From Vicinamibacteria bacterium (GTDB lineage Bacteria > Acidobacteriota > Vicinamibacteria > Marinacidobacterales > Marinacidobacteraceae): a DNA stretch of 64,000 nucleotides. The stretch lies in assembly GCA_965116805.1 (NCBI GenBank), contig OZ220713.1:703887-767886 (forward strand). Reading direction: 5' to 3'. Shown here piece after piece: positions 385 through 31,496 of this stretch. The position numbers were made by a program, and so were the translations under genes. Each line of letters opens with the position of its first letter. Positions within the stretch are counted from its first letter, which is position 1. Below the pieces are notes generated by a model that made no database searches, was not told where the DNA came from, and was given only the letters and a program-made list of their open reading frames with translations.

Positions 385-429
385 GGAACGCCGGCTTCAG
401 CCGGCACCCGCTGCGCGCCAGCGCAGCGG
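385..429 (+). repeat. Two-hairpin REP-like element, copy 1
   Basis: GGAAC-GCCGGCT-TC-AGCCGGC-AC followed directly by hairpin CCGCTGCGC-GCCA-GCGCAGCGG. Confidence 0.8.
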
Positions 430-476
430 AACGGCGTCACGGCCGAAACACCAGAGCGCCCCGCCGCGGGACGATT

Positions 477-515
477 ACAAGTAAAACGTGCTGCGCGATC
501 GCAAGTATTACTTGC
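477..515. promoter_or_regulatory. Candidate tandem palindromic operator
   Basis: Perfect 7-1-7 inverted repeat GCAAGTA-T-TACTTGC (501-515) and an 11/15 copy ACAAGTAAAACGTGC (477-491), in an AT-rich patch upstream of the beta-propeller gene. Confidence 0.5.
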
Positions 516-527
516 ATCGTCTCTGTC

Positions 528-2807
528 CTACTGCCCCGCGCCCATCGCCTCCCGGGCCGCCCGCGCCACGACGTCCCGCGGTGAGGCCATCGCGGCGGCC
601 TCCTCGATGACGGCCACCGCATCGGCGCCGCCCACCTCCCCGAGCGCGGTGACGGCCGCCGCCTGCGCGCGGTAGCTGGAATCGTTACGGAACCGCGCGA
701 TCAGGAACTCCGCTCCCGCCGAGCTGCCCAGCCGGGCGATCGCGGAGGTCCGTACGTCGGACCTCACGTCCCCCGAGGCCGCCGTCCGCAAGGCCTCGGC
801 GTCCGCCGCGTCTTCAGGATCCAGCCCCTCGGCCGCCGCCTGACGAACCGCCCAGAACGCGTCTCCGGCCACCGCGGCCCTGAGCGCCGCCCGCGCCTCC
901 TCGCCGCCCATCGCACCGAGCGCCACCGCCGCCCGGCGCCGTCCGGCGGCGTCGTCGTCCGCGAGCTGGGCCATCCACTCGGCGGCCGGCTTCGTGATGC
1001 TCAGCTCCGCTAGCAGGACATCGTCGGCGTCGAACCGCACGTAGCGGGGTTCCTCGGCGGCCGGGAAGCTGAGGTGCTGTTCCCGCCCCTCGAGCGTGAA
1101 GGGATGGACCTCGGAGCCGGACGCCGTGACCACGCGCACCGAGAGCGGAGCGCGGTACGCCTCCGGCACCGTGCCCATGCTGGCCTCGGGTCCCTGCACC
1201 TGGCGGATGTGCATCTCGACGGAATCCCCGTCCCACGTGGACTCGATCTCGAGCACCGGGTGGCCCGGGCGGCGCAGCCACATGTCGATGAACCAGCGGA
1301 TGTCCTGCCCGGTGGCCTCGGCGAAAGCGGTGATGAAGTCCTCGGTGTCCACCGGCTGGAAGGAGTGCTTCTCGAGGAAGTGCTTTATCCCGGCGCGGAA
1401 CTCCGCGTCCCCGGTGATGTGGCGGAGCAGCCGGATCAGCGCCGCGCCCTTCGGATACGTGTGGGAATCGAAGTTGTCGTTCGGCCGCCGCCACTGGTTG
1501 GTGACCACCGGCCGGAGGACGGTCCGCGCCTGGCGCAGGTAGGACTCGCGCTTCCGGCGCATGTTCTCGCCCGCCTCGGCGGGTCCGAGTTCGTAGGCGT
1601 GCCAGAGGTACTCCGAGTAGGTCCCGAAGCTCTCGGTCAGCCAGGTCTCGCCCCAGTCGCGGTAGGTGGTCAGGTCGCCCCACCAGTGGTGCGCCACCTC
1701 GTGGGCGACGAGGCCGTGGCTCGGGAAGTCCTGCTCGGCGCGCTCGTCGTGGATCGTGCTCTGGCCGAGCACGGTGGCGGTGGTGCTCTCGGCGCCGCCG
1801 CCAATCCCGGGAATGGTGATCTGGTCGTACTTGTTCCACGGATAGGGAACGCCGAACTCCTCGTCGAAGAAGGCCATCATCGCCGTCGTCTTGTGGAAGC
1901 TGCGGTGAGCGTCTTCCACGTCCTTCGGATAGACCCAGTAGTTCACCGGGATGTCGCCGTGGAAGTCCTCGATGACCTCGTAGGGACCGGCGACCAGCAC
2001 CGAGAGATAGGTCGGATGGGGCAGGTCGAGCCGCCAGTGGTGCGTCCGGGTGCCAGGCCGGGATCCCTCGCTGATGCCGATCAGCGCCCCGTTCGAGAGC
2101 ACCTTCCAGTCCTCCCGCACGGTGGCGAGCAGCTCGAAGGTGGACCGGTCCGCCGGGTGGTCCACCGAGGGATACCAGTGGCGGGCGCCCTCCGGGAACG
2201 AGAGGGTGTTGATGAGCTGGGGATTGGCGTCGGTCTCGTCCTTGAAGTCGAGTCCGAGGTCGTAGCTCGCCGGCATCCCGTACCGGGTCGCGTCCACGTC
2301 GATTCCGGACCCGCCGTAGTCGATCTCCAGGACGAGCGTTTCGCCTGCCTCGAGCGGCTCGGCGAGCGCAACCGTGAGCGTTCCGTCCGCGTGGGTGAAG
2401 TCGAGTTCCGTGCCGCCCGCGCGGACCGCGCGGACCTCGTAGGTCTCGGCGTCCAGCGCGACCTCCGAGATGTCCTCTTCGGCCTGCAGGTGGACGTCCA
2501 CCGTCCCGTCCATGCTCTTCGTGGTCTCGTCGAGGTCGAGGGCGACCCGGTAGTGGAGGACGTCGAAGGGCTCGTCGCGCTGCTCCCGGACCGGCCAGCC
2601 GGAGCGGTCCTCGTAGGGCGACTCGGCCGGGGGTGGCGGTTCGGACGCGCATCCGAAACACGAGAGCGCGATCGTAGCGAGCAGCACGTTCCTCGCCCGC
2701 CGGTGGCGGGCGGTGCCGGTCTGAAGACCGGCGCTCCCTTGACTGCAGGCGAGAGAAACGAGAGCGGCCAGCGCCGACGCGCCGGCGATCACCGGATTCC
2801 GATGCAT
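528..2807 (-). CDS. M1 family zinc aminopeptidase with C-terminal HEAT-like repeats, probably exported/lipoprotein
   Basis: HEVAH...WLTE (HEXXH+E), GGAES in place of GAMEN, YPKGA catalytic Tyr motif, Ala-rich helical repeats at the C-terminus. Start position uncertain. Confidence 0.9.
2694..2738 (-). repeat. Two-hairpin REP-like element, copy 2 (in frame within the aminopeptidase N-terminus)
   Basis: Minus strand GGGAGC-GCCGGTCT-TC-AGACCGGC-AC + CGCCCGCC-ACC-GGCGGGCG. Confidence 0.85.
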
Positions 2808-2829
2808 AGCGGGGACCTCCCCGGGACGG

Positions 2830-10245: not shown

Positions 10246-12297
10246 TCAGCGGTCCGCCTCGTCGAGCTGGACGAAGTGGTTCACGTAACCGCGGTAGCGG
10301 TCCCGGATGTCCCGCACGTAGCGCGTCACCTCGGAGCCCCGGACGTACCCGTAGGCCGCCCGGCTGGCGTACTCCGGCTCGCTCAGCCGGTTCATGGCCT
10401 CCTCGACGTGGCCGAACCAGAGCGACCCGTCGAGCCCCAGTTGGCGGGCGAGGCGGCGCCCGTCGCGGACGTGGCCGGGTCCGGCGTTGTAGGCCGCCAG
10501 CGCGAACCAGAGCTGTTCGCCCGGCGGCAGGTCGGGGAACCGTTCGCGGACCCAGGCCAGATAGCGCACGCCGGCGTCGATGCCCACCTCGGGTTCGGCG
10601 AGGCGGACCGGATCCACCCCGAGTTCCTCCGCGGTGCGCGGCATCACCTGCATCAGGCCGCGGGCCCCCGCGAAGCTGACGGTGTCGGGATCGAAGCCGC
10701 TCTCCTGGTACATCTGCGCGACGATCAGGCGCCAGTCGAAGTCCTCGGCCTCGGCGGCGGGCTTGACCAGGGCGTCGTACCGCGAGAGTTCGTCCCCGGT
10801 GACCCGGTGCTGGCGCTGGCGCGCCTGGCGGCGCCGGTTCACGAAGTACTTGTTGTAGAGGCTGTTGAACTCGAGGCCCCGGTAGCCGGCGTCGAGGAAG
10901 GCGTCCAGCTCGCGTTTCAGATCGGCCCGGAGCGGCCCCACCGCCCAGACGAGCTGCACCGTGGGTTCCACGGCGAGCCCCAGGGTCAACCGCGGCTCGA
11001 AGAGCGCCGCCAGTTCGGCGCGGTGGCTGTCCACCAGGGTGACGTCCACCTCGCCCTCTGCCACCGCCTCGAGGATCGCGTGGCTCGAGCGCTCCGTTGC
11101 CTCGACCTCGAAGTCGCCTTCGAGGCGGCCCAGCGTCGCCAGGTAGCTCGTCGCCTCCGGGACGGTCACCGTGCGGCCGGCGAGATCCGTCAGGTCCGCA
11201 ACCGGGTCCCCGGCAGTGACGAAGGTTTCCTGGATCTCGAGGTAATGCCGGGTGAAGAGCAGGCCTTCCGCCGCGCGGGTGGGGGTCTCCACCCAGCCGG
11301 CCGCGACGAGGTCCCCGCGTCCGGTCAGCAGTCCTTCCACGAGTTCCAGGTGATCGCGGGCCACAATGACCGCCAGATCCAGGCCGTGGCTCGCCGCGAA
11401 CTGTTGCACCAGCTCGTACTCGAACCCGAGCCGTTCCCCCCGCCAGAGGTAGTGGGTCACCGGCGAACTGATGGTGAGGAGCCGGAGCTGGCCCGACGCC
11501 CGGATCGCCTCCCAGTCGCGGATTTCCGCGGGTTCGTCGGCGACCGTGTGGTGTTCGGTCAGGAAATCGTCGAGCGCTTCGCGGAGTGCGGGGTTTTGCT
11601 TCCGCACGGCCCAGGCGATGCGCCGCGCCTCGGGAAGCTCCGCGAGTTTCCGGATTCCCGGACTCGTCCGGACGACGACCCGCGCGGCGGCCTCATCCAT
11701 GATCGTGGTGTCGAACGCGCCGTCCTCGATCAGCGTCCGGATGTTGAGCGGATCGAAGACGCCGGCCACTGCCACCCGGGGCGCCTCCGGATAGTGGGCG
11801 GCCAGGCTCTCCTCGTAGGAGGTTCCGGCGGGGACGCCGAACACGCCCTCGCCGCTACCGATGACCCACTCCCGGGAGATGGTGAGCGGGACGGTGAACG
11901 CCACCCGCTGCTGGCGGGTCTCGGTGACCGTCAACGTGGCGACCGCGACGTCGGCGCGGCCTTCCTCGAGCGCGACCAGCAGTCCATCCACGTCGGGAGA
12001 AACGATCCACTCGGCGCGCAGGCCGTGACGCTCGGCGAACTGTTCGGCGAGGAAGCGATAGCGCTCCTTCGACAGCCCCTGGGAGGGAAGGGTGTCGAAC
12101 GCCTCGAAACCATGCCGCACGAAGCGGATCACGCCCCGCTCCAGGATTGCCGGCCAGTCGTCGACGGTCCCGTCGGGGACCGCGGAGGGAGCCTCCGGTT
12201 CCGGCGCCCCGCACCCGGACAGCGCGGCGGGCAACAGGAGAGCCAGCACCACCGCTCCGCTGGCCGCGAACTGGCGCGAGGTGTTCGTCTTCGACAT
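10246..12297 (-). CDS. mltF: Lytic murein transglycosylase MltF-like lipoprotein with two substrate-binding domains
   Basis: Lipobox LSGC, two SBP_bac_3-like repeats (ADVAVATLTVTETR; GDLVAAGWVETPTR), SLT motifs QESGF, GARGLMQVM, AAYNAG. Confidence 0.85.
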   Translation of the reverse strand: MSKTNTSRQFAASGAVVLALLLPAALSGCGAPEPEAPSAVPDGTVDDWPAILERGVIRFVRHGFEAFDTLPSQGLSKERYRFLAEQFAERHGLRAEWIVSPDVDGLLVALEEGRADVAVATLTVTETRQQRVAFTVPLTISREWVIGSGEGVFGVPAGTSYEESLAAHYPEAPRVAVAGVFDPLNIRTLIEDGAFDTTIMDEAAARVVVRTSPGIRKLAELPEARRIAWAVRKQNPALREALDDFLTEHHTVADEPAEIRDWEAIRASGQLRLLTISSPVTHYLWRGERLGFEYELVQQFAASHGLDLAVIVARDHLELVEGLLTGRGDLVAAGWVETPTRAAEGLLFTRHYLEIQETFVTAGDPVADLTDLAGRTVTVPEATSYLATLGRLEGDFEVEATERSSHAILEAVAEGEVDVTLVDSHRAELAALFEPRLTLGLAVEPTVQLVWAVGPLRADLKRELDAFLDAGYRGLEFNSLYNKYFVNRRRQARQRQHRVTGDELSRYDALVKPAAEAEDFDWRLIVAQMYQESGFDPDTVSFAGARGLMQVMPRTAEELGVDPVRLAEPEVGIDAGVRYLAWVRERFPDLPPGEQLWFALAAYNAGPGHVRDGRRLARQLGLDGSLWFGHVEEAMNRLSEPEYASRAAYGYVRGSEVTRYVRDIRDRYRGYVNHFVQLDEADR

Positions 12298-12371
12298 CGC
12301 AAGCATCCGGCCGGATGGCCCCACCCCGCTGCTCGAAGAGCAACGGTCCCGAAGCCTAGCGCCTCCTTGGG

Positions 12372-12447
12372 TGGCGCGCCCTGAGGGATTCGAACCCCCG
12401 ACCTACAGGTTCGTAGCCTGTTGCTCTATCCACTGAGCTAAGGGCGC
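12372..12447 (-). tRNA. tRNA-Arg(ACG)
   Basis: 76-nt cloverleaf, anticodon arm ACAGG-CTACGAA-CCTGT, TTCGAAT T-loop, encoded CCA. Confidence 0.97.
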
Positions 12448-12466
12448 TCGCGACCCGGGGGCGCGC

Positions 12467-12475
12467 AATCTAGCA
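12467..12475 (-). promoter_or_regulatory. Extended -10 promoter candidate for tRNA-Arg
   Basis: TGC-TAGATT about 20 nt upstream of the tRNA 5' end. Confidence 0.45.
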
Positions 12476-12487
12476 GGTTTGCCTGAT

Positions 12488-12547
12488 GGGAGCGCCGGCC
12501 TCGGAGCGCCAGCCTCCGGCTGGCATCGCTCCGCGCGAGCGGAGCGA
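12488..12547 (+). repeat. Two-hairpin REP-like element, copy 3, preceded by a partial left arm
   Basis: GGGAGCGCCGGCCTC then GGAGC-GCCAGCC-TCC-GGCTGGC-A + TCGCTCCGC-GCGA-GCGGAGCGA. Confidence 0.8.
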
Positions 12548-12585
12548 AACCGCACTCCGCCGACCAGGGGTAGGCAGCGTTCCCC

Positions 12586-13512
12586 TTACGCAGCGGCGGC
12601 GGGGGTTTCCATGCCCCCGTGCGCCCAGCCCCGCGCCATCCGCGGCGTACTCCAGGCGGTCACCAGGCGGGAGTCCGGGGTGACGATCAGGAGCCCGGCC
12701 GTACCGCCGAGCCGCGACCGGCAGGCGGCCAGCAGCTCGCGGGCGGCATCCGCCGGATGCTGGCCGCCTTCCATCCGGGCGAGCACGGTGCGGGCCATGG
12801 AAAGGCGCGCGATCCCTTCGCCCCACCCGGTGCAGGCCACCCCGCCGATCCGGGAATCGGCGTAGAGCCCGGCGCCGGGCAGCGGCGTGTCGCCCACCCG
12901 GCCCGGGCGCTTGTTCAGCGTGCCGCCGGTGGACCCGGCGGCCGCAATGCGCCCTTCACCATCGATGGCAACCGCGCCGACCGTGTCTGCCGGCGAGGCG
13001 GCCCGCCGGCGCGCCTGGTGTGCGCGGAGCCGCTCCACCTCGCGGGGCACCACGAGTTCCTCGGGACGGATGGCCTCGAACCCCTGCTCCCGAGCGAACT
13101 CCTCGGCGCCCGGCCCGGCGAGCAGCACCTGCCGGGTGGCGTCGATCACCCGGCGGGCGACCCGGACGGGATTGCGGAGGGTGCGCACCGCCGCCACGCC
13201 GCCGACCCGGAGATCTTCACCGTCCATGATCGACGCGTCGAGCACCGCCTCGCCCCGGCGGTTGAGCACCGAACCGGTCCCCGCGTTCAGGGCCGGGTCG
13301 TCCTCGAGCAGCGTGACCACCGCTTCTACGGTGTCGAGCGCCGAAGCGCCGCCCCGCAGGGAGTCGAAGCCGAGCCGGGCCGCGGCGAGCGCGCCGGCCT
13401 CATGCGCTTCCCGCTCCTCGGGAGGAATGTCCCACGCGCCTCCGTGCACCAGGAGGGCCGGCCCGGTCCCCCGGACGACTTCGCACCGGATCCGGGGTTC
13501 GCTGCTGGTCAC
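12586..13512 (-). CDS. iaaA: Isoaspartyl peptidase/L-asparaginase (Ntn hydrolase)
   Basis: LLVHGGA, LEDDPALNAG, DASIMDG, DTVGAVA autocleavage Thr, STGG, GRVGDTP, TGWGE. Start approximate (GTG 13512). Confidence 0.92.
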   Translation of the reverse strand: MTSSEPRIRCEVVRGTGPALLVHGGAWDIPPEEREAHEAGALAAARLGFDSLRGGASALDTVEAVVTLLEDDPALNAGTGSVLNRRGEAVLDASIMDGEDLRVGGVAAVRTLRNPVRVARRVIDATRQVLLAGPGAEEFAREQGFEAIRPEELVVPREVERLRAHQARRRAASPADTVGAVAIDGEGRIAAAGSTGGTLNKRPGRVGDTPLPGAGLYADSRIGGVACTGWGEGIARLSMARTVLARMEGGQHPADAARELLAACRSRLGGTAGLLIVTPDSRLVTAWSTPRMARGWAHGGMETPAAAA

Positions 13513-13541
13513 CGGATCACCGGAAAAAACGAAACCACGCC

Positions 13542-13616
13542 TGGTACCGCTACGGGGATTCGAACCCCGGTTTGATGGCTGAGAACCACCCGTCCTAACC
13601 CCTAGACGATAGCGGC
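13542..13616 (-). tRNA. tRNA-Glu(CTC)
   Basis: 75-nt cloverleaf, anticodon loop TTCTCAG, TTCGAAT T-loop, encoded CCA. Confidence 0.95.
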
Positions 13617-13638
13617 ACCCGCAGGCGTGGGACCGACG

Positions 13639-13647
13639 ATCATAGCA
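13639..13647 (-). promoter_or_regulatory. Extended -10 promoter candidate for tRNA-Glu
   Basis: TGC-TATGAT about 22 nt upstream of the tRNA 5' end. Confidence 0.5.
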
Positions 13648-13660
13648 CTGCCCGTCGCCG

Positions 13661-14470
13661 TCACGGCCCTCGCACGACGGTGGCCGTGGACAGGTGCCAG
13701 TCGGCGATGGACGGCGCCGGGAGGTCCCGGTCCCCGTGCTGGCGCACGAGCACCCGGGCCCGCGAGCGGCGCGGGAGGAAACGCGCCAGAAAGAGCCCCC
13801 GGGCCAGCAGGCGGTGCGGGGTCTCGAACCAGACGGACGCAGCCGGGCCCGCGGCCCGAAGCGTCTCCCCGGCAAGCAGCGCGGTCAGGTCGGGTTCCCC
13901 GGGCGGCGCGATCCACCAGGGCACCGCGAGCGCGCCTTCCGCCGCCGGTTCGAACCGGCAGCTCGCGACCGGCCGGCCGCCGCGCACCAGGTGAACGCCG
14001 GCGGCGGGGAGCGCGGCGTCGGCCGGGAATCCGGCGACCGCACCGAAATCCGGCGCGAGGCGTTCGCGGAGACTCTCTTCCTCCGGGCGGGGCAGCGCTT
14101 CGGGAACCACCGTGACGTCGGCGAGCGGGCGGGCGCGCGGCAGGAGGAGCGCCGGCAAGCCCCGGCGCAGCCAGCCGGGCCGCACCGGACTGGAGTAGCG
14201 CGGCAGGGGCCCCGCGTCGTCGAACCCGAGCGCCCGGAGATCCGGGATCAGGGCGCTGGCGTCCTCCTCGAGGACCACCGCGGAAACTCCGGCGTCTCTC
14301 GACCACGCGGCGAGCCGCGCCAGCCCCTCGCGACGCGACTCGGGAGCGGGAAGTCGGAAGCGGGCGAGGAACGCTCCGGAAGTGGGCTCACCGGCGGACT
14401 GCGCCTGGAGCGGGGCGCCGGTGATTTCCGGTTGCGCGACTCGGGAACCCATTCCAGCACCGGAGGTCAC
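13661..14470 (-). CDS. Hypothetical protein, possibly a degenerate GNAT-fold protein
   Basis: Coding-like ORF in operon orientation; LRALGFDDAGPLPRY and C-terminal WHLS loosely resemble GNAT-family proteins. Confidence 0.45.
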   Translation of the reverse strand: MTSGAGMGSRVAQPEITGAPLQAQSAGEPTSGAFLARFRLPAPESRREGLARLAAWSRDAGVSAVVLEEDASALIPDLRALGFDDAGPLPRYSSPVRPGWLRRGLPALLLPRARPLADVTVVPEALPRPEEESLRERLAPDFGAVAGFPADAALPAAGVHLVRGGRPVASCRFEPAAEGALAVPWWIAPPGEPDLTALLAGETLRAAGPAASVWFETPHRLLARGLFLARFLPRRSRARVLVRQHGDRDLPAPSIADWHLSTATVVRGP

Positions 14471-14516
14471 GGCGCCGAGTAGAACACCATCACGGCGGGC
14501 GGCTTCTGCGCCCTCC

Positions 14517-14581
14517 GCCCGCCGGTCGGCGGGCTATGCCGGTCTGAAGGCCGCTACCGCGAGAACCGGCCGGCGCTTCCC
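14517..14581 (-). repeat. Long variant of the REP-like element, copy 4
   Basis: Plus strand: hairpin GCCCGCC-GGTC-GGCGGGC, then TGCCGGTCTGAAGGCCGCTACCGCGAGAACCGGCCGGCGCTTCCC; nearly identical to 23228-23271. Confidence 0.8.
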
Positions 14582-14590
14582 AGTCCCTGC

Positions 14591-14779: not shown

Positions 14780-14814
14780 TGTCTTCTCCTACGAATTGTC
14801 GGGGACGATAGTCG

Positions 14815-17938: not shown

Positions 17939-18008
17939 GGTCGGCGAAAACGGTACGCCAAGTCAGGCAACAGCGGATGCCACCCGGACGAACTGGCGTT
18001 GGTCCTTT

Positions 18009-18054
18009 CGCCCGCCTCTCGGCGGGCGGTGCCGGTCTAAAGACCGGCGCTCCC
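18009..18054 (-). repeat. Two-hairpin REP-like element, copy 5
   Basis: Minus strand GGGAGC-GCCGGTCT-TT-AGACCGGC-AC + CGCCCGCC-GAGA-GGCGGGCG. Confidence 0.85.
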
Positions 18055-18075
18055 TGGCGGGCTACGGTTCGCGGC

Positions 18076-18798
18076 ATGAGAGCGGTACCCGGGCCGGGGG
18101 CTTCCGGCACCCTCTTCGTGGTCGCCACCCCCATCGGGAACCTCGACGACCTCTCGCCCCGGGCGCTCACCGTGCTGCGCGCCGTGCCCTGGATCGCCTG
18201 CGAGGACACCCGCGTCGCCCGGCGGCTCCGGACGCACTTCGGCCTGACCGCCCGGCTCATCTCGTACCACGACCACAACGAAGCGCAACAGGTCGAGTTC
18301 CTCCTGGGCCGGCTCCGGTCCGGCGAGGACCTGGCGCTCATCTGCGATGCCGGAACGCCCCTGATCTCGGACCCCGGTTACCGGGTCGTGCGCGCCGCGC
18401 GCACCGAAGACCTGCCGGTGCGCACCGTTCCCGGGCCGTCCGCGGTCGCCTCGGCGCTCTCGGTCTCGGGCCTGCCGACCGACAGCTTCACGTTCTTCGG
18501 TTTTCCGCCGGGACGGCGAAGCGCGAAGCGGCGGGCGTTCCTGCAGCGGTCGGCCGAGGCGCCCGGGTCGCTGGTGTTCTTCGAGTCGGCCCGCCGCGCG
18601 GCGGAACTTCTCGACGAACTGGCGCGAATCCTCGGTCCCCGCGAGGCCTCCGTCTCCCGGGAGATGACGAAGATCCACGAAGAGCACTGGTTCGGCTCGC
18701 TCCCCGACCTCGCCCGGCGGGCGAAGCAGGAACCGCCGCGCGGGGAGGTGACCCTGGTCGTCGCCCCCGCGGGCCGGAAGAAACAGGGCGCCACGTAG
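18076..18798 (+). CDS. rsmI: 16S rRNA (cytidine1402-2'-O)-methyltransferase
   Basis: LFVVATPIGNLDDLSPRA, CEDTR, DAGTPLISDPG, VPGPSA, FESARR, SREMTKIHEE. Confidence 0.95.
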   Translation: MRAVPGPGASGTLFVVATPIGNLDDLSPRALTVLRAVPWIACEDTRVARRLRTHFGLTARLISYHDHNEAQQVEFLLGRLRSGEDLALICDAGTPLISDPGYRVVRAARTEDLPVRTVPGPSAVASALSVSGLPTDSFTFFGFPPGRRSAKRRAFLQRSAEAPGSLVFFESARRAAELLDELARILGPREASVSREMTKIHEEHWFGSLPDLARRAKQEPPRGEVTLVVAPAGRKKQGAT

Positions 18799-18896
18799 AA
18801 TTCCGGCCGGGGCAGGGTGACGCTGATGGCGGGCCTTGTCCGCCCGCCCGTTTCTTCGACCGTGGCCCGGACTCCCGGGCGCTGAGTTTCCCGAAC

Positions 18897-20006
18897 ATGG
18901 ATTTCCTGCTCGTCTATCCCGCGTCGTCCGAGATCGGCCGCTATCCGTTCTTTGGCGCCACCGTCGCGGCCGCCGCCTCCGGGGCCGCCGCCTCCTTTCA
19001 GGCGGACGAGTTCGTCGTCCTGAACGGAGCCGCGGGCGACTCCGCCGCTCTGGAGCGCCGCGGAACCCGGGGCGCCATCCTCGCGCCGGGAATCGTCGCC
19101 CCGCCGGTCGACGCCGTCCACGCCTTGGTGGCGGCCGCGGACGAACCGCTGCGGCTCCAGAACGACGCCGGCCAGACCCTGGCGCTCGCCGGGACCGCGG
19201 AAGCTCTCGGCGCCGCCGTGCGCCCGAGCTTTGGCGAGACCGCCGATGCCCTGCGAGCCGCGGAATCTCCCGCGGGAGCCGTCCCCGGACACACCCGGAT
19301 CGAGGACGCGGCGACCTGGTCCGCGGCCATTCGCGAGTCCCAGCGCGCCACCGCCCGGCGATTCGTCGAAAACGGGGCGCTGGTGGAGGATCCGGAGACC
19401 CTGTGGGCCGATCCCACCTGCGAGGCCGGGCCCGGCGCCCGCATCGGGGCCTCGGTGCGGCTCACCGGCAGTACGAAGATCGCCGGCGGCGCCGAGGTCC
19501 AGAGCTTCTGCCGGCTCGAGAACACCGAGGTGGAGGCCGGGGCGCGCATCCTCAGCCATTCCGTGCTGCTCGACAGCGCGATCGGGCGCGATGCGAAAGT
19601 GGGTCCCTTCGCCCACATCCGCCCGAACACCCGGCTCGAACCCGAGTCCTTCGCGGGCAGCTTCGTCGAGACCAAGAACGCCGTGCTGGCCCGCCGGGCC
19701 GCGCTGCCCCACCTGTCCTACGTGGGGGACGCGGACGTCGGCGTTCGCGCCAACCTGGGGGCCGGGACCATCACGTGCAACTACGACGGGCGCGGCAAGT
19801 ACCGGACCGTGGTGGAAGCGGGAGCGTTCGTGGGAAGCAACGCCATCCTGGTGGCGCCGGTGACCATCGGCCGGCGGGCGTTCGTCGCGGCCGGGTCCGT
19901 GATCGTCGAGGATGTCCCCGAGGGGGCGCTCGCCATCGCCCGGGGCCGTCAGGCGGTGAAGCCGGGCCGGGCGGCGGGCCGCTTCGAAGGAGCCGACGAG
20001 GTCTGA
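18897..20006 (+). CDS. glmU: GlmU-like protein: intact acetyltransferase (left-handed beta-helix) domain, eroded uridyltransferase domain
   Basis: VGPFAHIRP, FVETKN, HLSYVGDA, GAGTITCNYDG, FVGSN, LAIARGRQ are present. The N-terminal LAAGxGxRMxSxxPK motif is absent and that domain is about 150 aa. Confidence 0.85.
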   Translation: MDFLLVYPASSEIGRYPFFGATVAAAASGAAASFQADEFVVLNGAAGDSAALERRGTRGAILAPGIVAPPVDAVHALVAAADEPLRLQNDAGQTLALAGTAEALGAAVRPSFGETADALRAAESPAGAVPGHTRIEDAATWSAAIRESQRATARRFVENGALVEDPETLWADPTCEAGPGARIGASVRLTGSTKIAGGAEVQSFCRLENTEVEAGARILSHSVLLDSAIGRDAKVGPFAHIRPNTRLEPESFAGSFVETKNAVLARRAALPHLSYVGDADVGVRANLGAGTITCNYDGRGKYRTVVEAGAFVGSNAILVAPVTIGRRAFVAAGSVIVEDVPEGALAIARGRQAVKPGRAAGRFEGADEV

Positions 20007-20020
20007 GCCCGACCCAGAAG

Positions 20021-21025
20021 ATGGAGGCGCCTCCGGCGCTCCTCGCCGAGATCCGCGACCAGCCGGCCGCGGCGCGGCGCACGCTGGCCGCCCTCGCGGC
20101 CGGTGCGTCCCGGCGCGCGGCCGCACTTCGGGACGCCGACGCGCTCCGGCAGGCGCGGGTCCTGCTCGTCGGGGCCGGATCGAGCCGCTACGCCGCCGAG
20201 ATCGGCGCCGAGTGGTTCCGGGGCTGGAAACTCGATGGCGACGTCCGTTCGGCGAGCGGCGTCGGCGGGCCGCCGGCGAGCGGAGTCCTGCTGGTCGTCA
20301 CCCAGTCCGGCGCCACCCGCAGCACGCTCCGGCTTCTCGACCAGGCCGCGGCCGCCGGCATCTTTCGCATCGTGGTCACCAACGAGGCGGAAAGCCCGGC
20401 GGCGCGAAGCGCGGAGCTGGCGCTCATTACCGAGGCGGGACGGGAACACGCGATTCCGGCGACCAAGACATTCACTTCGGCTCTGGTCGCGCTCCGGGTT
20501 CTGGGTCTCGAATGGGCCGCCGCGCTCGGCCGGCGGCCGCCCCGGCCCGGCACGCGCCACGACCCGGCGAAGCTCCTCGACGACGCGGTAGCACGAGAGT
20601 CGAAGATCGCGGCGCGGATCGCCGAGATCGAGATCGGCGGGCCGTGGTTTTTCCTGGGAAGCGGCATCTTCAGTCCCCTGGCACGCGAAGGCGCCCTCAA
20701 GCTGATGGAGACCGCGCTGCTCCCGGCCATCCCGGTACCCGCCGGCGAGCTGGCCCACGGACCGGCCGCCCTGCTCGGGCCGACCACGCCCGTCGTGCTG
20801 CTGTCCGCCAACGACCCTCTTTCCCGGAGCGAGGCGCGGTCCGTCGCTGCGGCGCGCGCCGCCGGCGCTCCGGTGTTCCGGTTCGGCGATTCCGGCGTCC
20901 CCGCGGAGCTCCAGCCCTTCGCGGTGGCGCCCGTCCTGCAACTGCTCGCCTTCTTCGCCGGACGGCAGCTCGGCCGCGACGTGGACGCCCCGGCGGGGCT
21001 CCAGAAGGCGGTCCGTGACGACTGA
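20021..21025 (+). CDS. SIS-domain protein homologous to the GlmS isomerase half (no glutaminase domain)
   Basis: EIRDQP, GAGSS, VTQSGAT, AGREHAIPATKTFT, AREGALKLME, GELAHGP, GRDVDAPAGLQKAV; no N-terminal Cys1 Ntn domain. Confidence 0.85.
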   Translation: MEAPPALLAEIRDQPAAARRTLAALAAGASRRAAALRDADALRQARVLLVGAGSSRYAAEIGAEWFRGWKLDGDVRSASGVGGPPASGVLLVVTQSGATRSTLRLLDQAAAAGIFRIVVTNEAESPAARSAELALITEAGREHAIPATKTFTSALVALRVLGLEWAAALGRRPPRPGTRHDPAKLLDDAVARESKIAARIAEIEIGGPWFFLGSGIFSPLAREGALKLMETALLPAIPVPAGELAHGPAALLGPTTPVVLLSANDPLSRSEARSVAAARAAGAPVFRFGDSGVPAELQPFAVAPVLQLLAFFAGRQLGRDVDAPAGLQKAVRDD

Positions 21026-23165
21026 TCCGGCCGGCCCTGACGACCGCGCCGGGCAGTCGGTCCTCGCGGAGCTGAACGCCTCCCAGCAGGAGGCGGTCTC
21101 GGCGCCCGCCGGACCCACCCTGGTGCTCGCGGGCGCCGGCTCGGGCAAGACCCGGGTCATCACGCACCGGATCGGCTGGCGCCTGCTCGTGGACGGGGCC
21201 CCGCCGGAATCCATCCTCGCCGTCACCTTCACGAACAAGGCGGCGCGCGAGATGCGCACCCGCGTGAACGCCCTCGCCGCCGCGGTGCGGGAGACCGGAT
21301 CCCTGCCCTGGGTCTCCACCTTCCACGCGTTCGGGCTGAACCTGCTGCGGCGCTTCGGCGGTGACATCGGCCTGCCGTCCGGGTTCCCGGTGTTCGGGGC
21401 GGACGAGAGCCGCGCGCTCGTTCGGCAGGTCGCGCGCGAACTCCTGATCGACGACGACCGTCTCCCGCTCGGGCGGCTCGTCCAGTTGATCTCCCGGCTC
21501 CGGAACGCCGAGGCCTCCGGCGCCGCCTTTCGCGGACCGCGGGATCCGCGGCTGGCGGAGTCCGTGCGGGAGGCGACTGCCCTGTACCGGCGCAAGGTCG
21601 CCGAATTGAAGGGAGCGGACTTCGACGACCTGCTGATTCGCGCCCTCGAGCTGCTGGACGCTTCGGAGGCGGCCCGCTCGTTCGTCGACCGGCGGGTGCG
21701 CCACCTGTTGATCGACGAGTATCAGGACACCGGTCCCACCCAGCACCGGCTGGTCCTGAGGCTCGCCGGTCACCGCGACGTCTTCGCGGTCGGCGACGAC
21801 GACCAGGCGATCTACTCGTTCCGGGGGGCCGACTTCCGGAACATCCTCCGTTTCCGGGAGGACTTCCCGGGCGCGCGGGTCCTGCGGCTCGAGGAGAACT
21901 ACCGCTCCACCGCCGCCATCGTGGACGCCGCCAACGCGGTGATCCGCCGCAACCGACGCCGCGACGGCAAGACCCTCCGTCCGCTGGGAGAGCAGGGCGA
22001 GCGGGCCCGGTTCCGTTCGTTTGCCAGCGAAACGAGCGAGGCGCAGGCGATCGCCGTCGAGATCGCGGCCAAGGGGGAGGGGCGCGGCTCCACCGCCGTG
22101 CTCCTCCGGACCCGCGCCCAGACGCGGGCGTTCGAAGAAGCGTTCGCCGCCCATCGGATCCCGCACGTGATCGTGGGCGGGCTCCGCTTCTACGAGCGGC
22201 GCGAGGTGCTGGACGCGCTCGCCGGCCTCCGGGTGGCGGCCAATCCGGACGACGACTCCGCCTTCCGGCGGGCGCTGGCGGCGATTCCGCGCGGCGTGGG
22301 CCCGAAATCGCTCCGCCGCATCGAAGAGCAGGGGGCCGCGGACGAAACGTCCCTGCTCGCGGCGGCGGAGCGGGTCGTGGCGGATCGGGGCCTGCCGGCC
22401 CGGGCGCTGAACGGACTCCGCGCTTTCGTGGAGGGGATCGCCGCGGTTCGCCGCGCCATCCCCGGGGGACCGGAGAAGGTCGTCCGTTCGGCGATCGCGG
22501 ACACGGGCCTCGGGCCCTTTTTCCAGGAGAACGACCGGGAGCGCTTCGAGAACCTCGTCTCGCTGCAGAACGCCGCCCGGGAATTCGAGCGGACGAACCC
22601 GGAGGGCTCCGTCGATGCCTTTCTGGACCAGGTGAGCCTGCTGTCGGCGGAGGACCTGATGCCGGAGGAAGGGGCCGATCCCGGCGTGCCGCCGGTGATG
22701 GTGATGACGGTGCACGCCGCCAAGGGGCTCGAGTTCGATTCGGTGTTCCTGGCCGGTCTCTGGGAGGGGCTCTTCCCGCACGCGTTCTCGCTCGAATCGG
22801 ACCTCCAGCTCGAAGAGGAACGGCGCCTCTTCTACGTCGGGATGACCCGGGCGCGGAAGCGCCTGCAGCTCTCGGCGGCGCCGGGCGGAGCGCCCTACCT
22901 CCGGTCGCGGGGCGGGGTCTCGCGGTTCCTCGGCGAGATTCCCCGGGACCTGCTCGAGACGGCGCGCGGCGAGGCCCGGACGCTCCCCATCGCGACGGCT
23001 CCCGCGGCCGGACCGTTCCGCAAGGGCGACTCCGTGCGCCACCCCAAGTTCGGGGTCGGCCGGGTAGAGACCGTGGACCCGGACGGCAAGCGCCTCTCCG
23101 TCCTGTTCCGTTACCACGGGCGGCGGCGGCTGGTCCTGGAGTTCGCGCGTCTGGAACGGGTCTAG
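21015..23165 (+). CDS. uvrD: UvrD/PcrA ATP-dependent DNA helicase
   Basis: AGAGSGKT, TFTNKAA, DEYQD, VGDDDQAIYSFRGA, LEENYRST, TVHAAKGLEF, EERRLFYVGMTRA, C-terminal Tudor VRHPKFGVG. Confidence 0.96.
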   Translation: MTTDPAGPDDRAGQSVLAELNASQQEAVSAPAGPTLVLAGAGSGKTRVITHRIGWRLLVDGAPPESILAVTFTNKAAREMRTRVNALAAAVRETGSLPWVSTFHAFGLNLLRRFGGDIGLPSGFPVFGADESRALVRQVARELLIDDDRLPLGRLVQLISRLRNAEASGAAFRGPRDPRLAESVREATALYRRKVAELKGADFDDLLIRALELLDASEAARSFVDRRVRHLLIDEYQDTGPTQHRLVLRLAGHRDVFAVGDDDQAIYSFRGADFRNILRFREDFPGARVLRLEENYRSTAAIVDAANAVIRRNRRRDGKTLRPLGEQGERARFRSFASETSEAQAIAVEIAAKGEGRGSTAVLLRTRAQTRAFEEAFAAHRIPHVIVGGLRFYERREVLDALAGLRVAANPDDDSAFRRALAAIPRGVGPKSLRRIEEQGAADETSLLAAAERVVADRGLPARALNGLRAFVEGIAAVRRAIPGGPEKVVRSAIADTGLGPFFQENDRERFENLVSLQNAAREFERTNPEGSVDAFLDQVSLLSAEDLMPEEGADPGVPPVMVMTVHAAKGLEFDSVFLAGLWEGLFPHAFSLESDLQLEEERRLFYVGMTRARKRLQLSAAPGGAPYLRSRGGVSRFLGEIPRDLLETARGEARTLPIATAPAAGPFRKGDSVRHPKFGVGRVETVDPDGKRLSVLFRYHGRRRLVLEFARLERV

Positions 23166-23205
23166 GCGATCGCGCCCGCTGCGAGGCTGGATGGAGTCGC
23201 GACGT

Positions 23206-23271
23206 GCGCGGTGCGGAGCACCGCGCGTGCCGGTCTGGAGGCCGCTACCGCGAGAACCGGCCGGCGTTCCC
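23206..23271 (-). repeat. Long variant of the REP-like element, copy 6
   Basis: Plus strand: hairpin GCGCGGTGC-GGA-GCACCGCGC, then GTGCCGGTCTGGAGGCCGCTACCGCGAGAACCGGCCGGCGTTCCC, abutting the pyrE stop. Confidence 0.85.
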
Positions 23272-23825
23272 TAGGTGTCCGTGAGGTCGTCCAGGCCGAA
23301 CGCCGCCGCGTAGGGGACGCCGGCCCCGGCGAGCAGCGGACCGGCCCCCATGCCCCGGTCCACGAGCGCCACCGCTCCCACCACCTCGAAGCCGGCCTCG
23401 CGGGCGGCCTCCACCGCCGCGAGGGTCGATTTCCCCGTGGTGGCGGTGTCTTCGAGGATGACCGCCGCGCCCTGCGGGTGCTCGACCCCCTCGATGCGCC
23501 GGCCGCGGCCGTGGTCCTTCGCCTCCTTGCGGACGAAGAACCCGGCAAGCCGCCGTCCGCCAGCGTGCGCCTCCATGACGACCGCCGTGGTCAGGGGGAT
23601 CGCTCCGGCCGCCATCCCCCCCACCGCGGACGCCCGAAAACCCGAGCGGTCCATGGTGTCGAGCAGGATCCGGCCGACCAGCGCCGCCGCGTCGGAACGC
23701 AGGACGGTGAGCCGGGCGTCCACGTAGACGTTGGAGGTGCCGCCGTGCGCGAGCTGGAACTCGCCGAACCTGACGGACTCCCGGCGGAGGATGGCGAGCA
23801 GGGCGGTGCGGGGGTCGCCGCTCAC
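23271..23825 (-). CDS. pyrE: Orotate phosphoribosyltransferase
   Basis: FGEFQLAHGGTSNVYVDAR, FFVRKEAKDHG, VILEDTATTGKS PRPP-binding motif. Confidence 0.95.
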   Translation of the reverse strand: MSGDPRTALLAILRRESVRFGEFQLAHGGTSNVYVDARLTVLRSDAAALVGRILLDTMDRSGFRASAVGGMAAGAIPLTTAVVMEAHAGGRRLAGFFVRKEAKDHGRGRRIEGVEHPQGAAVILEDTATTGKSTLAAVEAAREAGFEVVGAVALVDRGMGAGPLLAGAGVPYAAAFGLDDLTDT

Positions 23826-23871
23826 GCTCCCAGGCGTCCCCGCAGTTCCTCGCCGTCGGCGGTCGCCGTTG

Positions 23872-23914
23872 CGCCCGCTGCGCGGGCGGTGCCGGTGTGA
23901 ACACCGGCGCTCCC
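23872..23914 (-). repeat. Two-hairpin REP-like element, copy 7
   Basis: Plus strand CGCCCGC-TGC-GCGGGCG + GT-GCCGGTGT-GA-ACACCGGC-GCTCCC; compensatory change relative to GCCGGTCT/AGACCGGC. Confidence 0.85.
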
Positions 23915-23925
23915 GAGGAGTCGTC

Positions 23926-24629
23926 TCACGTCGTGGGCTCGATGGCGGCGATGATCCAGCGCGCGGGTATGTCGGCGCCCTGCTGGTTCTGGAGGTCGTA
24001 GCGGATGAGGGCGAAGCGGTATTCGCGCGCCGCCCCTTCCTCCACCGTCCTCACCAGCAGCTCCTGCTCCGAGATGTTCCCCGTGAGGTAGTCCACGGGC
24101 GCCTCCCGAAGCAGGCTCCGCTGGGCCCGCCGGCGTTCCTCCTCGAGCGCCATCTGCACCTCGCTCAGCGAGGTGACCAGCCGGCGCCGCTCGGCCGCGT
24201 GGGCGTCCCACTCGTCGGCGGTCTCCCCCAGGCGTCCCCCGATGGCAACATTCGGGTTCCCGTCCCGGCGGTCCGTGATCATCGCGAGGGCCTCCTGGTT
24301 CGCCTGACGAAAGTCGTAGAAGATCTTGAACTGCTCGTCCCGGGCGGCCTCCGCGTCCGTCTCCTCCCTGCGAAGCTCCGGCACCCGGTACGGGCCCTCC
24401 GTCACCATCCCGGTCTCGAGGATCTCCCACGACTCGACCGGGCCCCCGGGAAAGCCGGCCATCGAGAGCCCCCCGGCGCTCACCCGGTCGTCCGCCGCGA
24501 TGGCGCGAAAGAACTGCGAAAGGAGCGCCTCTTCGGGCGGGGAGGAACACCCGGCCGCGAACGCCGCCACGATCGCGAGCGCCGGGAAAGCGGTGCGGAA
24601 GCCAGAGCGGGCGTCGCGGACGGTCGCGT

Positions 24630-24633
<4 letters not shown>
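23926..24633 (-). CDS. Hypothetical lipoprotein
   Basis: Lipobox AAGC, central coiled-coil-like segment, ATGA overlap with the gyrA stop. Confidence 0.75.
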
Positions 24634-29896
<5,263 letters not shown>

Positions 29897-29927
29897 GCTC
29901 AGCGAACCGTGCGTGGTCGCGGACCGA

Positions 29928-31052
29928 TCAAACGAGCGGCATCCCGACGCAGAAGTGCTCGATGCTGTCGTCCTCGTCGAGCGGACGCAGGATGAAGGCG
30001 GTGTCCGGAGTGTTGAACTCCAGCGCGACCGCCTCACAGTCGAAGCTCTTTGCGAAATCACGCAGATGCACGAGGTTCAGGTGAAGAGTCAGCGGAGTCC
30101 CCGACGCCTCCAGAACCTCGACCTCCGAGATGGCCTCGCCCCGCACCGACGTGACGTCGATCCGGATGGACTCCTCGCCGATGTCGAGCTTGGCCCGGTT
30201 GAAGTCCCCGGTCGAGAACGGGAGCGCGGCCTGGACGGCGCCGAGCAGTCCCTCCCGGCTGGTGCGAATCCGGATCGGGCAGTCGCGCGGGATCACATGC
30301 TCGTATTCCGGCAGCCGATCGGCGAGCTTGGCGCACACCAGCAGCCGGTGTCCGAACTCGAGGAAGAGGTGGTTCTCTCCCTCAAAGAAGCGCATGCCGG
30401 AGTCACCGCTGCGCGCCAGCAGGGTCAGCTCTGAAATGGCCTTCATTCCGAGTCCGAAGGCCTGCTTGCCGCCGGAAGCGGCTCCATCTCCATCTCCCAG
30501 CGTGGCGCTGGAGTAGGCCAGGCGCGAGTGGTCGGACGAAACGATCCGCACGCTGCCGCCCTCGACTTCGAGCTGGGCGCCGGCCGTCGCGACCGACGCG
30601 TCCACCGCGGCCGGAAAGGCGTACGAGCCGGACCGCAGCAGGGTCGCAAACATCTCGGACGGCACCGTGCAGAGCGGATCCGCAGGGGGATCCGAGAGCG
30701 TTGGCGGGTCTCCGACCCGGCCGGGGATGCGGGTGTCGTTTCCCCCACAGCGAACCTGGATCCAGTTCTGGTCGGTCTCGTGGAACGAAACCTGCTCCGC
30801 GCGCCCTTCCTTGAGCCAGCGCGCCAGGAGGCTCACCGGCACGCTGAGCAGGCCCTCGCCCTGGGTCTCCGCGGCGATGCTGGACCTGAGACCGATCTCT
30901 CCGCCCGACGCGGTCAATTCGCATCCGTTCTCCGATGGCCGGAAGGTGACGTTCGAGAACATGGAGAGTGGGTCTGACGGCCGGTTCTCGACCACGCCGG
31001 CGAACAGGTTCAGTTCTGCCAGCAGGGCTTCTCGGTTAGTGGTGAAGTCCAT
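29928..31052 (-). CDS. dnaN: DNA polymerase III beta sliding clamp
   Basis: 374 aa, position between dnaA and gyrB, DHSRLA (cf. DGHRLA), LPEYEHVIP, C-terminal GMPLV; divergent sequence. Confidence 0.9.
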   Translation of the reverse strand: MDFTTNREALLAELNLFAGVVENRPSDPLSMFSNVTFRPSENGCELTASGGEIGLRSSIAAETQGEGLLSVPVSLLARWLKEGRAEQVSFHETDQNWIQVRCGGNDTRIPGRVGDPPTLSDPPADPLCTVPSEMFATLLRSGSYAFPAAVDASVATAGAQLEVEGGSVRIVSSDHSRLAYSSATLGDGDGAASGGKQAFGLGMKAISELTLLARSGDSGMRFFEGENHLFLEFGHRLLVCAKLADRLPEYEHVIPRDCPIRIRTSREGLLGAVQAALPFSTGDFNRAKLDIGEESIRIDVTSVRGEAISEVEVLEASGTPLTLHLNLVHLRDFAKSFDCEAVALEFNTPDTAFILRPLDEDDSIEHFCVGMPLV

Positions 31053-31194
31053 GAAGTGCTCTTTTCCGAATCAGCAATTGGCGGCGCGGAGGTAGGGGAG
31101 ACTCCCGCGAGTATCGACAGGATCCAGGACGCCTCGATTCAAAACGGAGAAGGCGCGAAGATCGAACGGATCAATAGAAACAGAGGAGCCGTCG

Positions 31195-31420
31195 AGGAGG
31201 AATTATAGTCATTAATTGAGCGTGTGGAAAGTGGGGATAAATCATTCAAGTCATTGAAAAAAGGACACTTGAAAGGTCTTTTGATTGTTGGGGAACTGCC
31301 CGGTTGATGGTGGGGTCCTGTGCAAAACCGCACAACCGGTGTCCGGCGGGTATGGATGGGCCGGGTTTTCCACAGGAATCCACACGTTTTCCACAGGTTT
31401 TCCGCACCTTTTCCACATTC
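31195..31420. other. Replication origin oriC (dnaA-dnaN intergenic)
   Basis: DnaA boxes TGTGGAAAG 31223-31231 and TGGGGATAA 31232-31240; TTTTCCACA 31366, GAATCCACA 31376, TTTTCCACA 31387, TTTTCCGCA 31398, TTTTCCACA 31409; AT-rich tract about 31200-31290. Confidence 0.88.
31247..31259 (-). promoter_or_regulatory. IHF-like site in oriC
   Basis: Minus strand TTTCAATGACTTG, one mismatch to WATCAANNNNTTR. Confidence 0.5.
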
Positions 31421-31466
31421 TTCGAGGTGCCCGAGGACCGTGCGTTTCCGGGTCCGGGCCGAGCCC

Positions 31467-31496
31467 GGAACGCCGGCCGGCTCTCGCGGCAGCGGC
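31467..31496 (+). repeat. Partial long-variant REP-like element beside oriC, copy 9
   Basis: GGAACGCCGGCCGGCTCTCGCGGCAGCGGC matches the reverse complement of copy 6 at 28/30. Confidence 0.75.

Follow-up and report, generated by a model that had tools for sequence, protein, structure and literature searches.

We analyzed a 64,000-nucleotide stretch (the window; positions 703,887 to 767,886 of contig OZ220713.1, assembly GCA_965116805.1) from a sponge- and coral-associated, uncultured member of the Acidobacteriota, class Vicinamibacteria, 'Candidatus Marinacidobacterium', with respect to a dispersed family of short two-hairpin repeats. The host genome is a single contig of 3,555,437 bp with 69.8% G+C, and a literature search on the genus name returned no match. 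An earlier note had placed eight full copies of the repeat (at 385, 2694, 12503, 14517, 18009, 23206, 23872, and 29823) and one partial copy (at 31467) in the window, and direct reading of the sequence found all nine at those positions. As we discuss below, these repeats are most likely repetitive extragenic palindromic (REP) elements spread by a REP-associated tyrosine transposase (RAYT).

Read on the strand that we call tag-first, each unit consists of a tetranucleotide (GGAR, less often GGAC), a single C, hairpin 1, 1–3 linker bases, and hairpin 2. Hairpin 1 has a GCCGG-based stem of 6–8 bp and a loop of 3–4 nt, and hairpin 2 has a G+C stem of 7–10 bp and a loop of the same size. On the complementary strand, called forward, the order is hairpin 2, hairpin 1, and G(C/T/G)TCC, the complement of GGA(G/A/C)C; hairpin 1 plus tag is referred to as the core. 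In the following list, bit scores come from a covariance model that took 80 genome-wide copies as input and was run over the whole window with filters off, z values refer to folding as single-stranded DNA (ssDNA), and G numbers designate other species of the genus.

379..434, minus strand: class A REP; on the plus strand, tag GGAAC at 385-389, hairpin 1 at 390-405 (GCCGGC TTCA GCCGGC), and hairpin 2 at 408-429 (CCGCTGCGC GCCA GCGCAGCGG); 62.5 bits, z = -3.5; downstream of the stop of a minus-strand gene ending at 528; also at the orthologous site in G003.
2688..2743, plus strand: class C REP; hairpin 2 at 2694-2712, hairpin-1 core and tag at 2714-2737 (TGCCGGTCTGAAGACCGGCGCTCC); 59.4 bits, z = -4.5.
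12497..12552, minus strand: class B variant REP; core at 12503-12525, hairpin 1 with the compensatory pair GCCAGCC/GGCTGGC; 63.5 bits; adjoins a tRNA at 12375-12447.
14516..14582, plus strand: long REP copy; hairpin 2 intact (GCCCGCC GGTC GGCGGGC), hairpin-1 core at 14537-14579 with a 19-20 nt insert (GCCGCTACCGCGAGAACCG), tag degenerate (GCTTCC); 26.8 bits, z = -0.25.
18003..18059, plus strand: class C REP with loop TAAA; core at 18030-18053; 64.9 bits, z = -5.5; between divergently transcribed genes.
23207..23272, plus strand: long REP copy; hairpin 2 GCGCGGTGC GGA GCACCGCGC, core at 23228-23270 with a 19-20 nt insert; 32 bits; between convergent genes.
23866..23919, plus strand: class C variant REP; core at 23890-23913, hairpin 1 with the compensatory pair GCCGGTG/CACCGGC; 53.1 bits.
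29818..29874, plus strand: class D REP (loop TGGA, tag GTTCC); core at 29845-29868; 60.3 bits; just upstream of a minus-strand gene starting at 29763, at the gyrB position.
31461..31503, minus strand: partial or decayed REP copy; GGAAC, then GCCGGCCGGC, then a second stem with imperfect pairing; E = 0.05, fold z = -1.1.

The anatomy attributed to the copies in the earlier note, a tag with two adjoining hairpins, held for the six short copies, which scored 53–65 bits and folded as ssDNA into two adjoining hairpins (z from -3.1 to -5.5). It did not hold for the long copies at 14517 and 23206 (model matches 14516-14577 and 23207-23270, 27–32 bits), which retained hairpin 2 but lost a clean hairpin 1 to the insert (z of -0.25 and -1.9). 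The tag had been given as GG(G)ARC; the actual tags are GGAGC, GGAAC, or GGACC, and that of copy 14517 is GGAAGC. The partial copy was a marginal match, and the scan of the whole window detected no further copy and nothing credible between 32 and 64 kb. The pattern TGCCRG..CYGGCGYTCC matched eight times in the window compared to 0.04 times expected from shuffles; these eight matches represent seven sites, as two overlap at 12489/12503, and copy 14517 with its GCTTCC tag is not among them. At the gathering threshold, Rfam identified two tRNAs in the window and no family matching the repeats.

Genome-wide, a census with relaxed patterns that tested hairpin 1 and the tag only found ~629 cores in 3.55 Mb (556 short and 73 long), with both strands equally represented. 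Repeat units make up ~1% of the 3.5-Mb genome, and their cores fall into a small number of classes.

Class A: TGCCGGCTGAAGCCGGCGTTCC; 173 exact copies genome-wide.
Class B: TGCCGGCCGGAGGCCGGCGCTCC; 111 copies, plus 17 with CAG.
Class C: TGCCGGTCTGAAGACCGGCGCTCC; 56 copies, plus 25 with GGTCC.
Class D: TGCCGGTCTGGAGACCGGCGTTCC; 46 copies.
Long class: hairpin 1 with an inserted module; 73 cores.

Rarer hairpin-1 variants display clean double changes (GCCAGCC/GGCTGGC, GCCGACC/GGTCGGC, GCCGGTG/CACCGGC, and GCCGATC/GATCGGC). Most of the covariation reported earlier for hairpin 1 reflects differences among a small number of subfamilies, which are linked one by one to separate RAYT lineages. Although only ~16% of the genome is intergenic, 590 of the 629 cores (94%) were intergenic, as judged against genes from a home-made suffix-score caller based on G+C content at third codon positions (84% coding), on which these intergenic statistics depend. 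Convergent spacers held 33% of intergenic copies vs 16% of intergenic length, divergent spacers held 14% (83 copies) vs 26% of length, and a quarter of copies lay within 21 nt of a stop codon.

Beyond the tag, units continue into a G-rich, weakly conserved tail, which brings the repeating unit to ~83 nt. The spacer consensus is weak and G-rich (AAGCCG-t.gcg.c...c.gg), the same tail occurs on isolated class-A copies, and in some doublets inverted similarity extends ~24 nt further, beyond the tag. The two hairpins of the earlier description thus appear to be the conserved core of a larger, ~83-nt unit. Directly repeated neighbors are separated by ~60 nt from core to core, with a period of 82–84 nt, and 77 of 80 direct arrays mixed hairpin-1 classes at the same spacing. 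Inverted neighbors had their tags outward in 72 cases vs 3 with a gap of ~109–112 nt; 50 inverted pairs had gaps of 95–120 nt, and 40 of these paired class A with class A. In minimum-free-energy predictions, tags-outward doublets formed a single long hairpin, in which the hairpin-1/tag modules paired with each other and each hairpin 2 folded locally; as modeled, this is the arrangement of a REPIN, an inverted REP doublet. In 29 of the 40 class-A doublets, one end carried the hairpin-2 stem GCCCGCC and the other GCGGCCC, and none of the 40 had identical hairpin-2 types at both ends, so that part of the 'variation' of hairpin 2 is a dimorphism of left and right ends. No direct repeat of 3–8 bp, at any offset, flanked any of 43 class-A doublets as a target duplication of 3 bp or more would. 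This absence fits HUH chemistry and speaks against miniature inverted-repeat transposable elements (MITEs) of the DDE type.

No transposase had been found in the window, which is correct because both RAYT genes lie elsewhere in the genome. A search for a Y1/HUH gene flanked by the same repeats, as the earlier note had suggested, identified two PF01797 genes, both of them repeat-flanked. The intact gene (G000:C1 ~3342870-3343585, minus strand) scored 86.1 bits against the NCBIfam model NF047646 REP_Tyr_transpos, for which the curated cut-off is 80, and its product aligned to E. coli TnpA-REP (PDB 4ER8) with the motifs NHVHV and YVRNNP, corresponding to the HUH motif and the catalytic tyrosine. 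In the orientation of the gene, two class-A repeats lie upstream and three directly downstream, followed by an array of twelve in the opposite orientation. The second gene (~3214970-3215640) is split by a stop or frameshift and is flanked by class-C and long copies. RAYT homologs with 68–93% identity were present in 12 of 15 congeners at 1–3 copies each, giving 0–3 genes per genome and paralogs that are 68–75% identical. At every retrieved RAYT locus with DNA on both sides (two loci lie near a contig end, with an incomplete flank), the repeats to the left of the gene were minus-strand copies and those to the right were plus-strand copies, in many cases forming arrays. Importantly, clades in a maximum-likelihood tree of RAYTs matched the class of the flanking repeats. 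Class-A repeats flank the clade containing the RAYTs of this genome, G003, and G007a; class-B repeats flank the clade of G005, G011, and G007b (support 100/99); the GCCGACC variant flanks the clade of G006 and G008; and class-C repeats flank the clade comprising G013 and the pseudogene of this genome. Judged from these genes, this genome has an active-looking RAYT for class A only. Class A is also the most homogeneous class, with 68 distinct hairpin-2 strings in 173 copies vs 44 in 56 for class C, a comparison that is confounded by sample size.

Hairpin 2 was assessed by a per-copy census with three controls instead of by column-wise covariation, because MAFFT left this hairpin of variable geometry unaligned; base-pair counts on the seed alignment are illustrative only, as the seeds had been pre-selected for a good hairpin 2. 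Among copies chosen by hairpin 1 and tag alone, 69.5% had a perfectly paired stem of 7 bp or more whose end lay within 5 nt of the core, compared to 0.6% for shuffled upstream sequence, 0.8% for the downstream flank, and 1.1% for random REP-free intergenic DNA. Single internal mismatches numbered 34 in ~470 stems, with G·T and A·C mismatches at 16 vs 8 (p = 0.15). The innermost 7-mers comprised 46 distinct sequences, nine of them common, and hairpin-2 types had preferred hairpin-1 partners yet were common to several classes. Hairpin 2 is thus conserved as a structure and not as a sequence. The earlier statement that it differs between most copies captured this diversity but overstated it, as the major stem types number about nine, with some rare ones besides, and the diversity is mostly that of a few old lineages rather than of change from copy to copy. 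Likewise, the proposal that selection acts on structure agrees with perfect stems far above the controls and with diverse stem sequences, but self-templated repair of the palindrome could produce the same pattern in the absence of selection. Perfect palindromes can be restored by intrastrand template switching, as is established for quasi-palindromes in E. coli. Such repair of DNA palindromes makes covariation weaker evidence of selection than it is in RNA genes. Compensatory changes are also common in REPINs (Bertels and Rainey, PMC3116915).

The covariance model had at least 146 matches in each of the 15 other species of the genus; copy numbers in these relatives are lower bounds that do not allow species possessing a RAYT to be compared with those lacking one. 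Weak matches numbered 8 and 19 in two further genera of the family, and a scan of 12 genomes from other families of the order gave none. Synteny with sister species is retained around the sites in the window, and comparison with empty orthologous loci, another check named in the earlier note, revealed empty sites in several of these species.

Site 2694: 142 bp here; 37 bp in G010.
Site 12503: 138 bp here; 55-56 bp (empty) in G003 and G010; a different REP class at the same spot in G008 and G009.
Site 14517: long form here; short form with the same hairpin 2 in G010; empty in G003, G008, and G009.
Site 18009: 179 bp here; 98 bp in G003.
Site 23206: long copy here; class-A doublet in G003, class D in G010, other forms in G009 and G001.
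Site 23872: 100 bp here, common to G003; 14 bp between genes in G010, G012, and G008, with no hairpin 2 remaining.
Site 29823: 164 bp here, common to G010; 31 bp in G003 and G012.
Site 31461-31503: decayed copy here; G003 lacks ~43 nt.

The difference between site 2694 and G010 could be read as a clean insertion of 47 nt that comprises both hairpins and the tag. Several size differences between this genome and its sisters (81–86 bp) equal the array period. Hairpin 2 was absent at all of the empty orthologous sites examined (23872, 29823, 12503, 14517, 18009, and 2694). At 29823, a 133-bp extra segment, exactly the length that G003 and G012 lack, is bounded by a 25-nt direct repeat, CGGAGTCAGTACGGTGCTGTCCATG, at 29740 and 29873, 133 nt apart; this direct repeat could explain the precise loss of the segment by repeat-mediated deletion. 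At the 23206 site, a metatranscriptome contig from a strain ~98% identical had 51 nt vs 107 nt in the window, which hints at strain polymorphism.

The REP-bearing spacers also contained larger inserts. In G003, G008, and G009, the orthologs of 2688-2829 carry 670–870 bp of additional DNA that, by eye, resembles a small antitoxin–toxin pair (ribbon-helix-helix-like, then PIN-like), and in G003 only the first gene is present, followed by class-B REPs. An insertion of 3.7 kb occupies the intergenic site at 23206 (23166-23270) in G004, and one of 6 kb occupies the 385 site (342-527) in G010. These spacers look like general insertion hot spots.

According to a rule often applied to REPs, a 5' GTAG or GTGG lies 0–2 nt from the foot of the hairpin (PMC6006769, PMC3733652). 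The tag of the present repeats, GGAR-C, is one base away from GTAG-C and occupies the canonical place, one nucleotide from the stem. RAYT relatives with 43–44% identity that have FW-Q (n = 2) are flanked by GTAG(C)-tagged hairpins, and an Armatimonadota RAYT with FW-A (n = 1) is flanked by GTAC(C). By contrast, hairpins of the GCCGGC type with a GGAxC tag flank six FW-M RAYTs, which represent the three clades of the genus, a coral-associated Vicinamibacteraceae genome, an Opitutales metagenome-assembled genome (MAG), and a Myxococcota MAG, and this set spans Acidobacteriota, Verrucomicrobiota, and Myxococcota. RAYTs of the Opitutales MAG (contig CAZLPS010000063.1) and the Myxococcota MAG are 50–55% identical to that of this genome, and the hairpins beside them, tagged GGGAAC or GGGATC, are very similar and again of the GCCGGC type. 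With 59% G+C and unrelated flanking genes, the contig from Opitutales is not a mis-binned relative. The presence of such a RAYT with similar hairpins in other phyla points either to an ancient common origin of the clade or to horizontal acquisition of a RAYT along with its REPs. The residue that changes between Trp-Gln and Trp-Met aligns with Q95 of E. coli TnpA-REP, which is among the residues involved in recognition of GTAG (PMC6006769), and across phyla the GGAR tag seems to track this change, as a correlation over few lineages. It is possible, although we hold the idea only tentatively, that a multi-phylum RAYT clade switched its guide from GTAG to GGAR via the Gln-to-Met change beside the conserved Trp, and that the REP became a two-module element in which hairpin 1 and the tag provide specificity and a freely evolving hairpin 2 marks the identity of doublet ends. 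If true, the two groups would be a natural specificity-variant pair for studying how HUH transposases read their guides.

Taken together, these results make it highly probable that the repeats are REP elements, in part REPINs and tandem arrays, that are spread and maintained in trans by a RAYT encoded elsewhere in the chromosome. The earlier suggestion of a RAYT substrate without the canonical GTAG tag is thus supported by the repeat-flanked RAYT genes, the inverted bracketing of these genes, the match between RAYT clades and repeat classes, and the empty orthologous sites. By analogy to E. coli TnpA-REP and the IS200/IS605 family, the RAYT would bind hairpin 1 on ssDNA, read the tag beside the foot of hairpin 1, and then cut and rejoin the DNA, with units moving without target duplication. 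Hairpin 1 and the tag, the RAYT-linked part that is constrained in sequence, would form the specificity module, each RAYT paralog having its own class; hairpin 2 is kept as a structure and, in class-A doublets, differs between the ends in the manner of the left and right ends of an insertion sequence (IS).

Several observations weigh against this interpretation. The canonical GTAG/GTGG tetranucleotide is absent, and its place is taken by GGAG, GGAA, or GGAC, separated from the stem by one C. Core orientation relative to replication (289 vs 340, p = 0.046; isolated copies, 109 vs 129) lacks a marked strand bias, unlike that reported for IS608-type elements, and the split was too weak to be used as an argument for targeting of the lagging strand, which we rejected. 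This genome lacks a cognate RAYT for classes B and D, and its class-C RAYT is a pseudogene, so that most copies here may be immobile relics; three congeners have repeats and no detectable RAYT. The 25-nt direct repeat at the 29823 insertion is not predicted by HUH transposition. Finally, public reads with the locus gave assembled contigs that ended at repeats, with inflated depth, and no clean excision joint was found in them.

A competing possibility is that the repeats are primarily functional RNA or DNA structures kept by the host, as terminators, stabilizers of mRNA 3' ends, or protein-binding sites, and that the link to a transposase is incidental. The excess in convergent spacers and close behind stop codons, the high stability of the hairpins, and a hairpin 2 that is conserved in structure but not in sequence would all be expected in this case, and REPs of other bacteria are known to serve in such ways (background in PMC6006769 and PMC3733652). 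However, no T-run follows the hairpins on either strand, the next bases being GCTCCC or GTTCCAAGCC in one direction and the hairpin-2 leader in the other; a terminator scan of 12001-32000 called no REP site; copies point both ways with respect to the upstream gene (306 vs 399); and 83 copies lie between divergent genes. Presence or absence also varies among sister species at otherwise conserved sites, mosaic arrays and doublets occur, repeats bracket every RAYT gene for which both flanks are available, no Rfam family matched, and the mismatch counts in hairpin 2 gave no clear strand signal. We consider a primary host function improbable, but in view of the excess near 3' ends a secondary use by the host is conceivable.

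It is still less probable that hairpin 2 is a pre-existing chromosomal palindrome, such as a terminator stem, into which a smaller unit of hairpin 1 plus tag inserts. There is a precedent, as one study proposes small CCGSSCC(n3,4)GGSSCGG palindromes as the target around GTAG-23 elements of Thermomicrobium roseum (PMC3733652), and both the variability of hairpin 2 beside a constant hairpin 1 and the occurrence of the same hairpin-2 types with several hairpin-1 classes are in keeping with it. But 440 of 852 perfect intergenic hairpins outside cores were exactly at the hairpin-2 position, few of the other 412 were hairpin-2-like, and the hairpin-2 type is tied to the identity of the end in class-A doublets. 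The scarcity of solo hairpin-2-like palindromes and the lack of hairpin 2 at every empty site examined indicate that hairpin 2 belongs to the element, unlike what was suggested for T. roseum GTAG-23, and on the basis of the empty sites we rejected a pre-existing target. The least credible explanation takes the inverted doublets for ordinary MITEs, whose terminal inverted repeats would be acted on by a transposase of the DDE type. Doublets of ~170 nt with terminal inverted repeats of ~30 nt or more, in tens of copies, have the look of such elements, yet single units and direct arrays outnumber them and the Y1/HUH gene is the only gene consistently bracketed by repeats. No DDE transposase gene was seen at the RAYT loci, although no genome-wide search for one was made, and the lack of target-site duplications at the 43 doublets led us to reject this explanation. 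Spread and maintenance by a RAYT remains the reading that we favor.

Additional features accompany individual copies. The module of the long copies (CCCCCACCGGGAGAACTGG, with the variant GCCGCTACCGCGAGAACCG) is a 19–20 nt insertion in the 3' arm of hairpin 1 and has at least 115 copies in the genome, ~67 inside hairpin 1, ~10 in place of hairpin 2 directly upstream of the core, and others elsewhere. In G009 and G001 it is on both arms and creates a much longer hairpin, and its presence at 14517 here and absence in G010 show that it was gained or lost in place. Directly abutting the full copy at 12503 is a shortened second head, GGGAGCGCCGGCCTC (12489-12502; tag, 5' arm, and part of the loop), which looks as if one unit had been inserted into, or had recombined with, another. 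A second palindrome, GCGCCTC-GNA-GAGGCGC, has at least 15 intergenic copies genome-wide with no adjoining hairpin 1, occurs as well in the G010 insertions, and may be another repeat family. The partial copy at 31461-31503 lies ~45 nt from a cluster, at 31223-31417, of 9-mers that resemble DnaA boxes (TTTTCCACA in three copies, along with variants), between genes at the dnaN and dnaA positions. This cluster is likely oriC; the cumulative GC-skew minimum, at genome position 554,100, is ~180 kb away from it, and the skew is weak.

These results extend REP/REPIN-RAYT systems to an uncultured, host-associated genus of Acidobacteriota. Its 16 species, with RAYT sets that are intact, broken, or absent, are a natural experiment on the persistence or decay of repeats after loss of the transposase, and recognition of the guide can be approached experimentally through the one-base variant of the tag and the matching Trp-Gln to Trp-Met change. 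In practical terms, the repeats break short-read assemblies, create spurious open reading frames, and occur inside annotated gene starts, and we advise masking them when these MAGs are annotated. The relevance is moderate to low for generalists and higher for those who study REPs and HUH enzymes.

REP/REPIN-RAYT systems are known from Pseudomonas, Enterobacteria, and Stenotrophomonas (Nunvar 2010; Ton-Hoang 2012). Other accounts are those of Bertels & Rainey 2011 (PMC3116915) and Di Nocera 2013 (PMC3733652). The present family resembles these systems in having hundreds of short G+C-rich palindromes, nearly all of them outside genes and with an excess behind 3' ends; a tetranucleotide conserved by the foot of the hairpin; tandem clusters as well as inverted doublets able to form long hairpins; an HUH/Tyr transposase of low copy number that has its own repeats on both sides, with several paralogs that each have their own REP class; vertical persistence across the genus; and compensatory changes in stems. 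It differs in its tag, GGAR (or GGAC) plus C instead of GTAG/GTGG, in the second adjoining hairpin of every unit, which is variable in sequence and marks the two doublet ends, in direct arrays with an 82–84 nt period that mix classes, and in its host, a sponge- or coral-associated genus of Vicinamibacteria rather than a Proteobacterium.

Closer in phylum are the TIRtrons and their TIRYTs, described in Di Nocera 2013 (PMC3733652) as RAYT-like genes with non-GTAG inverted repeats, including 'double palindromic' ones, and with an Acidobacteria-specific protein group. As there, the repeats here come from an Acidobacterial phylum, lack GTAG, and flank a RAYT-like gene, and the TIRtron repeats can likewise be self-complementary and form dispersed families of dimers or clusters; the obligatory second hairpin of our units is close to the 'double palindromic' repeats. 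By contrast, copy number here is far above that of the 'moderately abundant' families of the same account, and our repeat is a clear tag-plus-hairpin REP one base from GTAG, a distinction drawn from the published description. In common with insertion sequences of the IS200/IS605 family (IS608, ISDra2) and their TnpA, the present system has an enzyme of the HUH/Tyr family (PF01797), hairpins in subterminal position next to a guide tetranucleotide, two unlike ends, and no target duplication. Here, however, the transposase gene is single or low copy and is not itself multiplied, the dispersed units are gene-free, the flanking repeats are inverted instead of in the same orientation, and no replication-strand bias was detected. 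By geometry, gene linkage, matching of paralogs to classes, and persistence at the level of the genus, this is a REP/REPIN-RAYT system with modest variant features.

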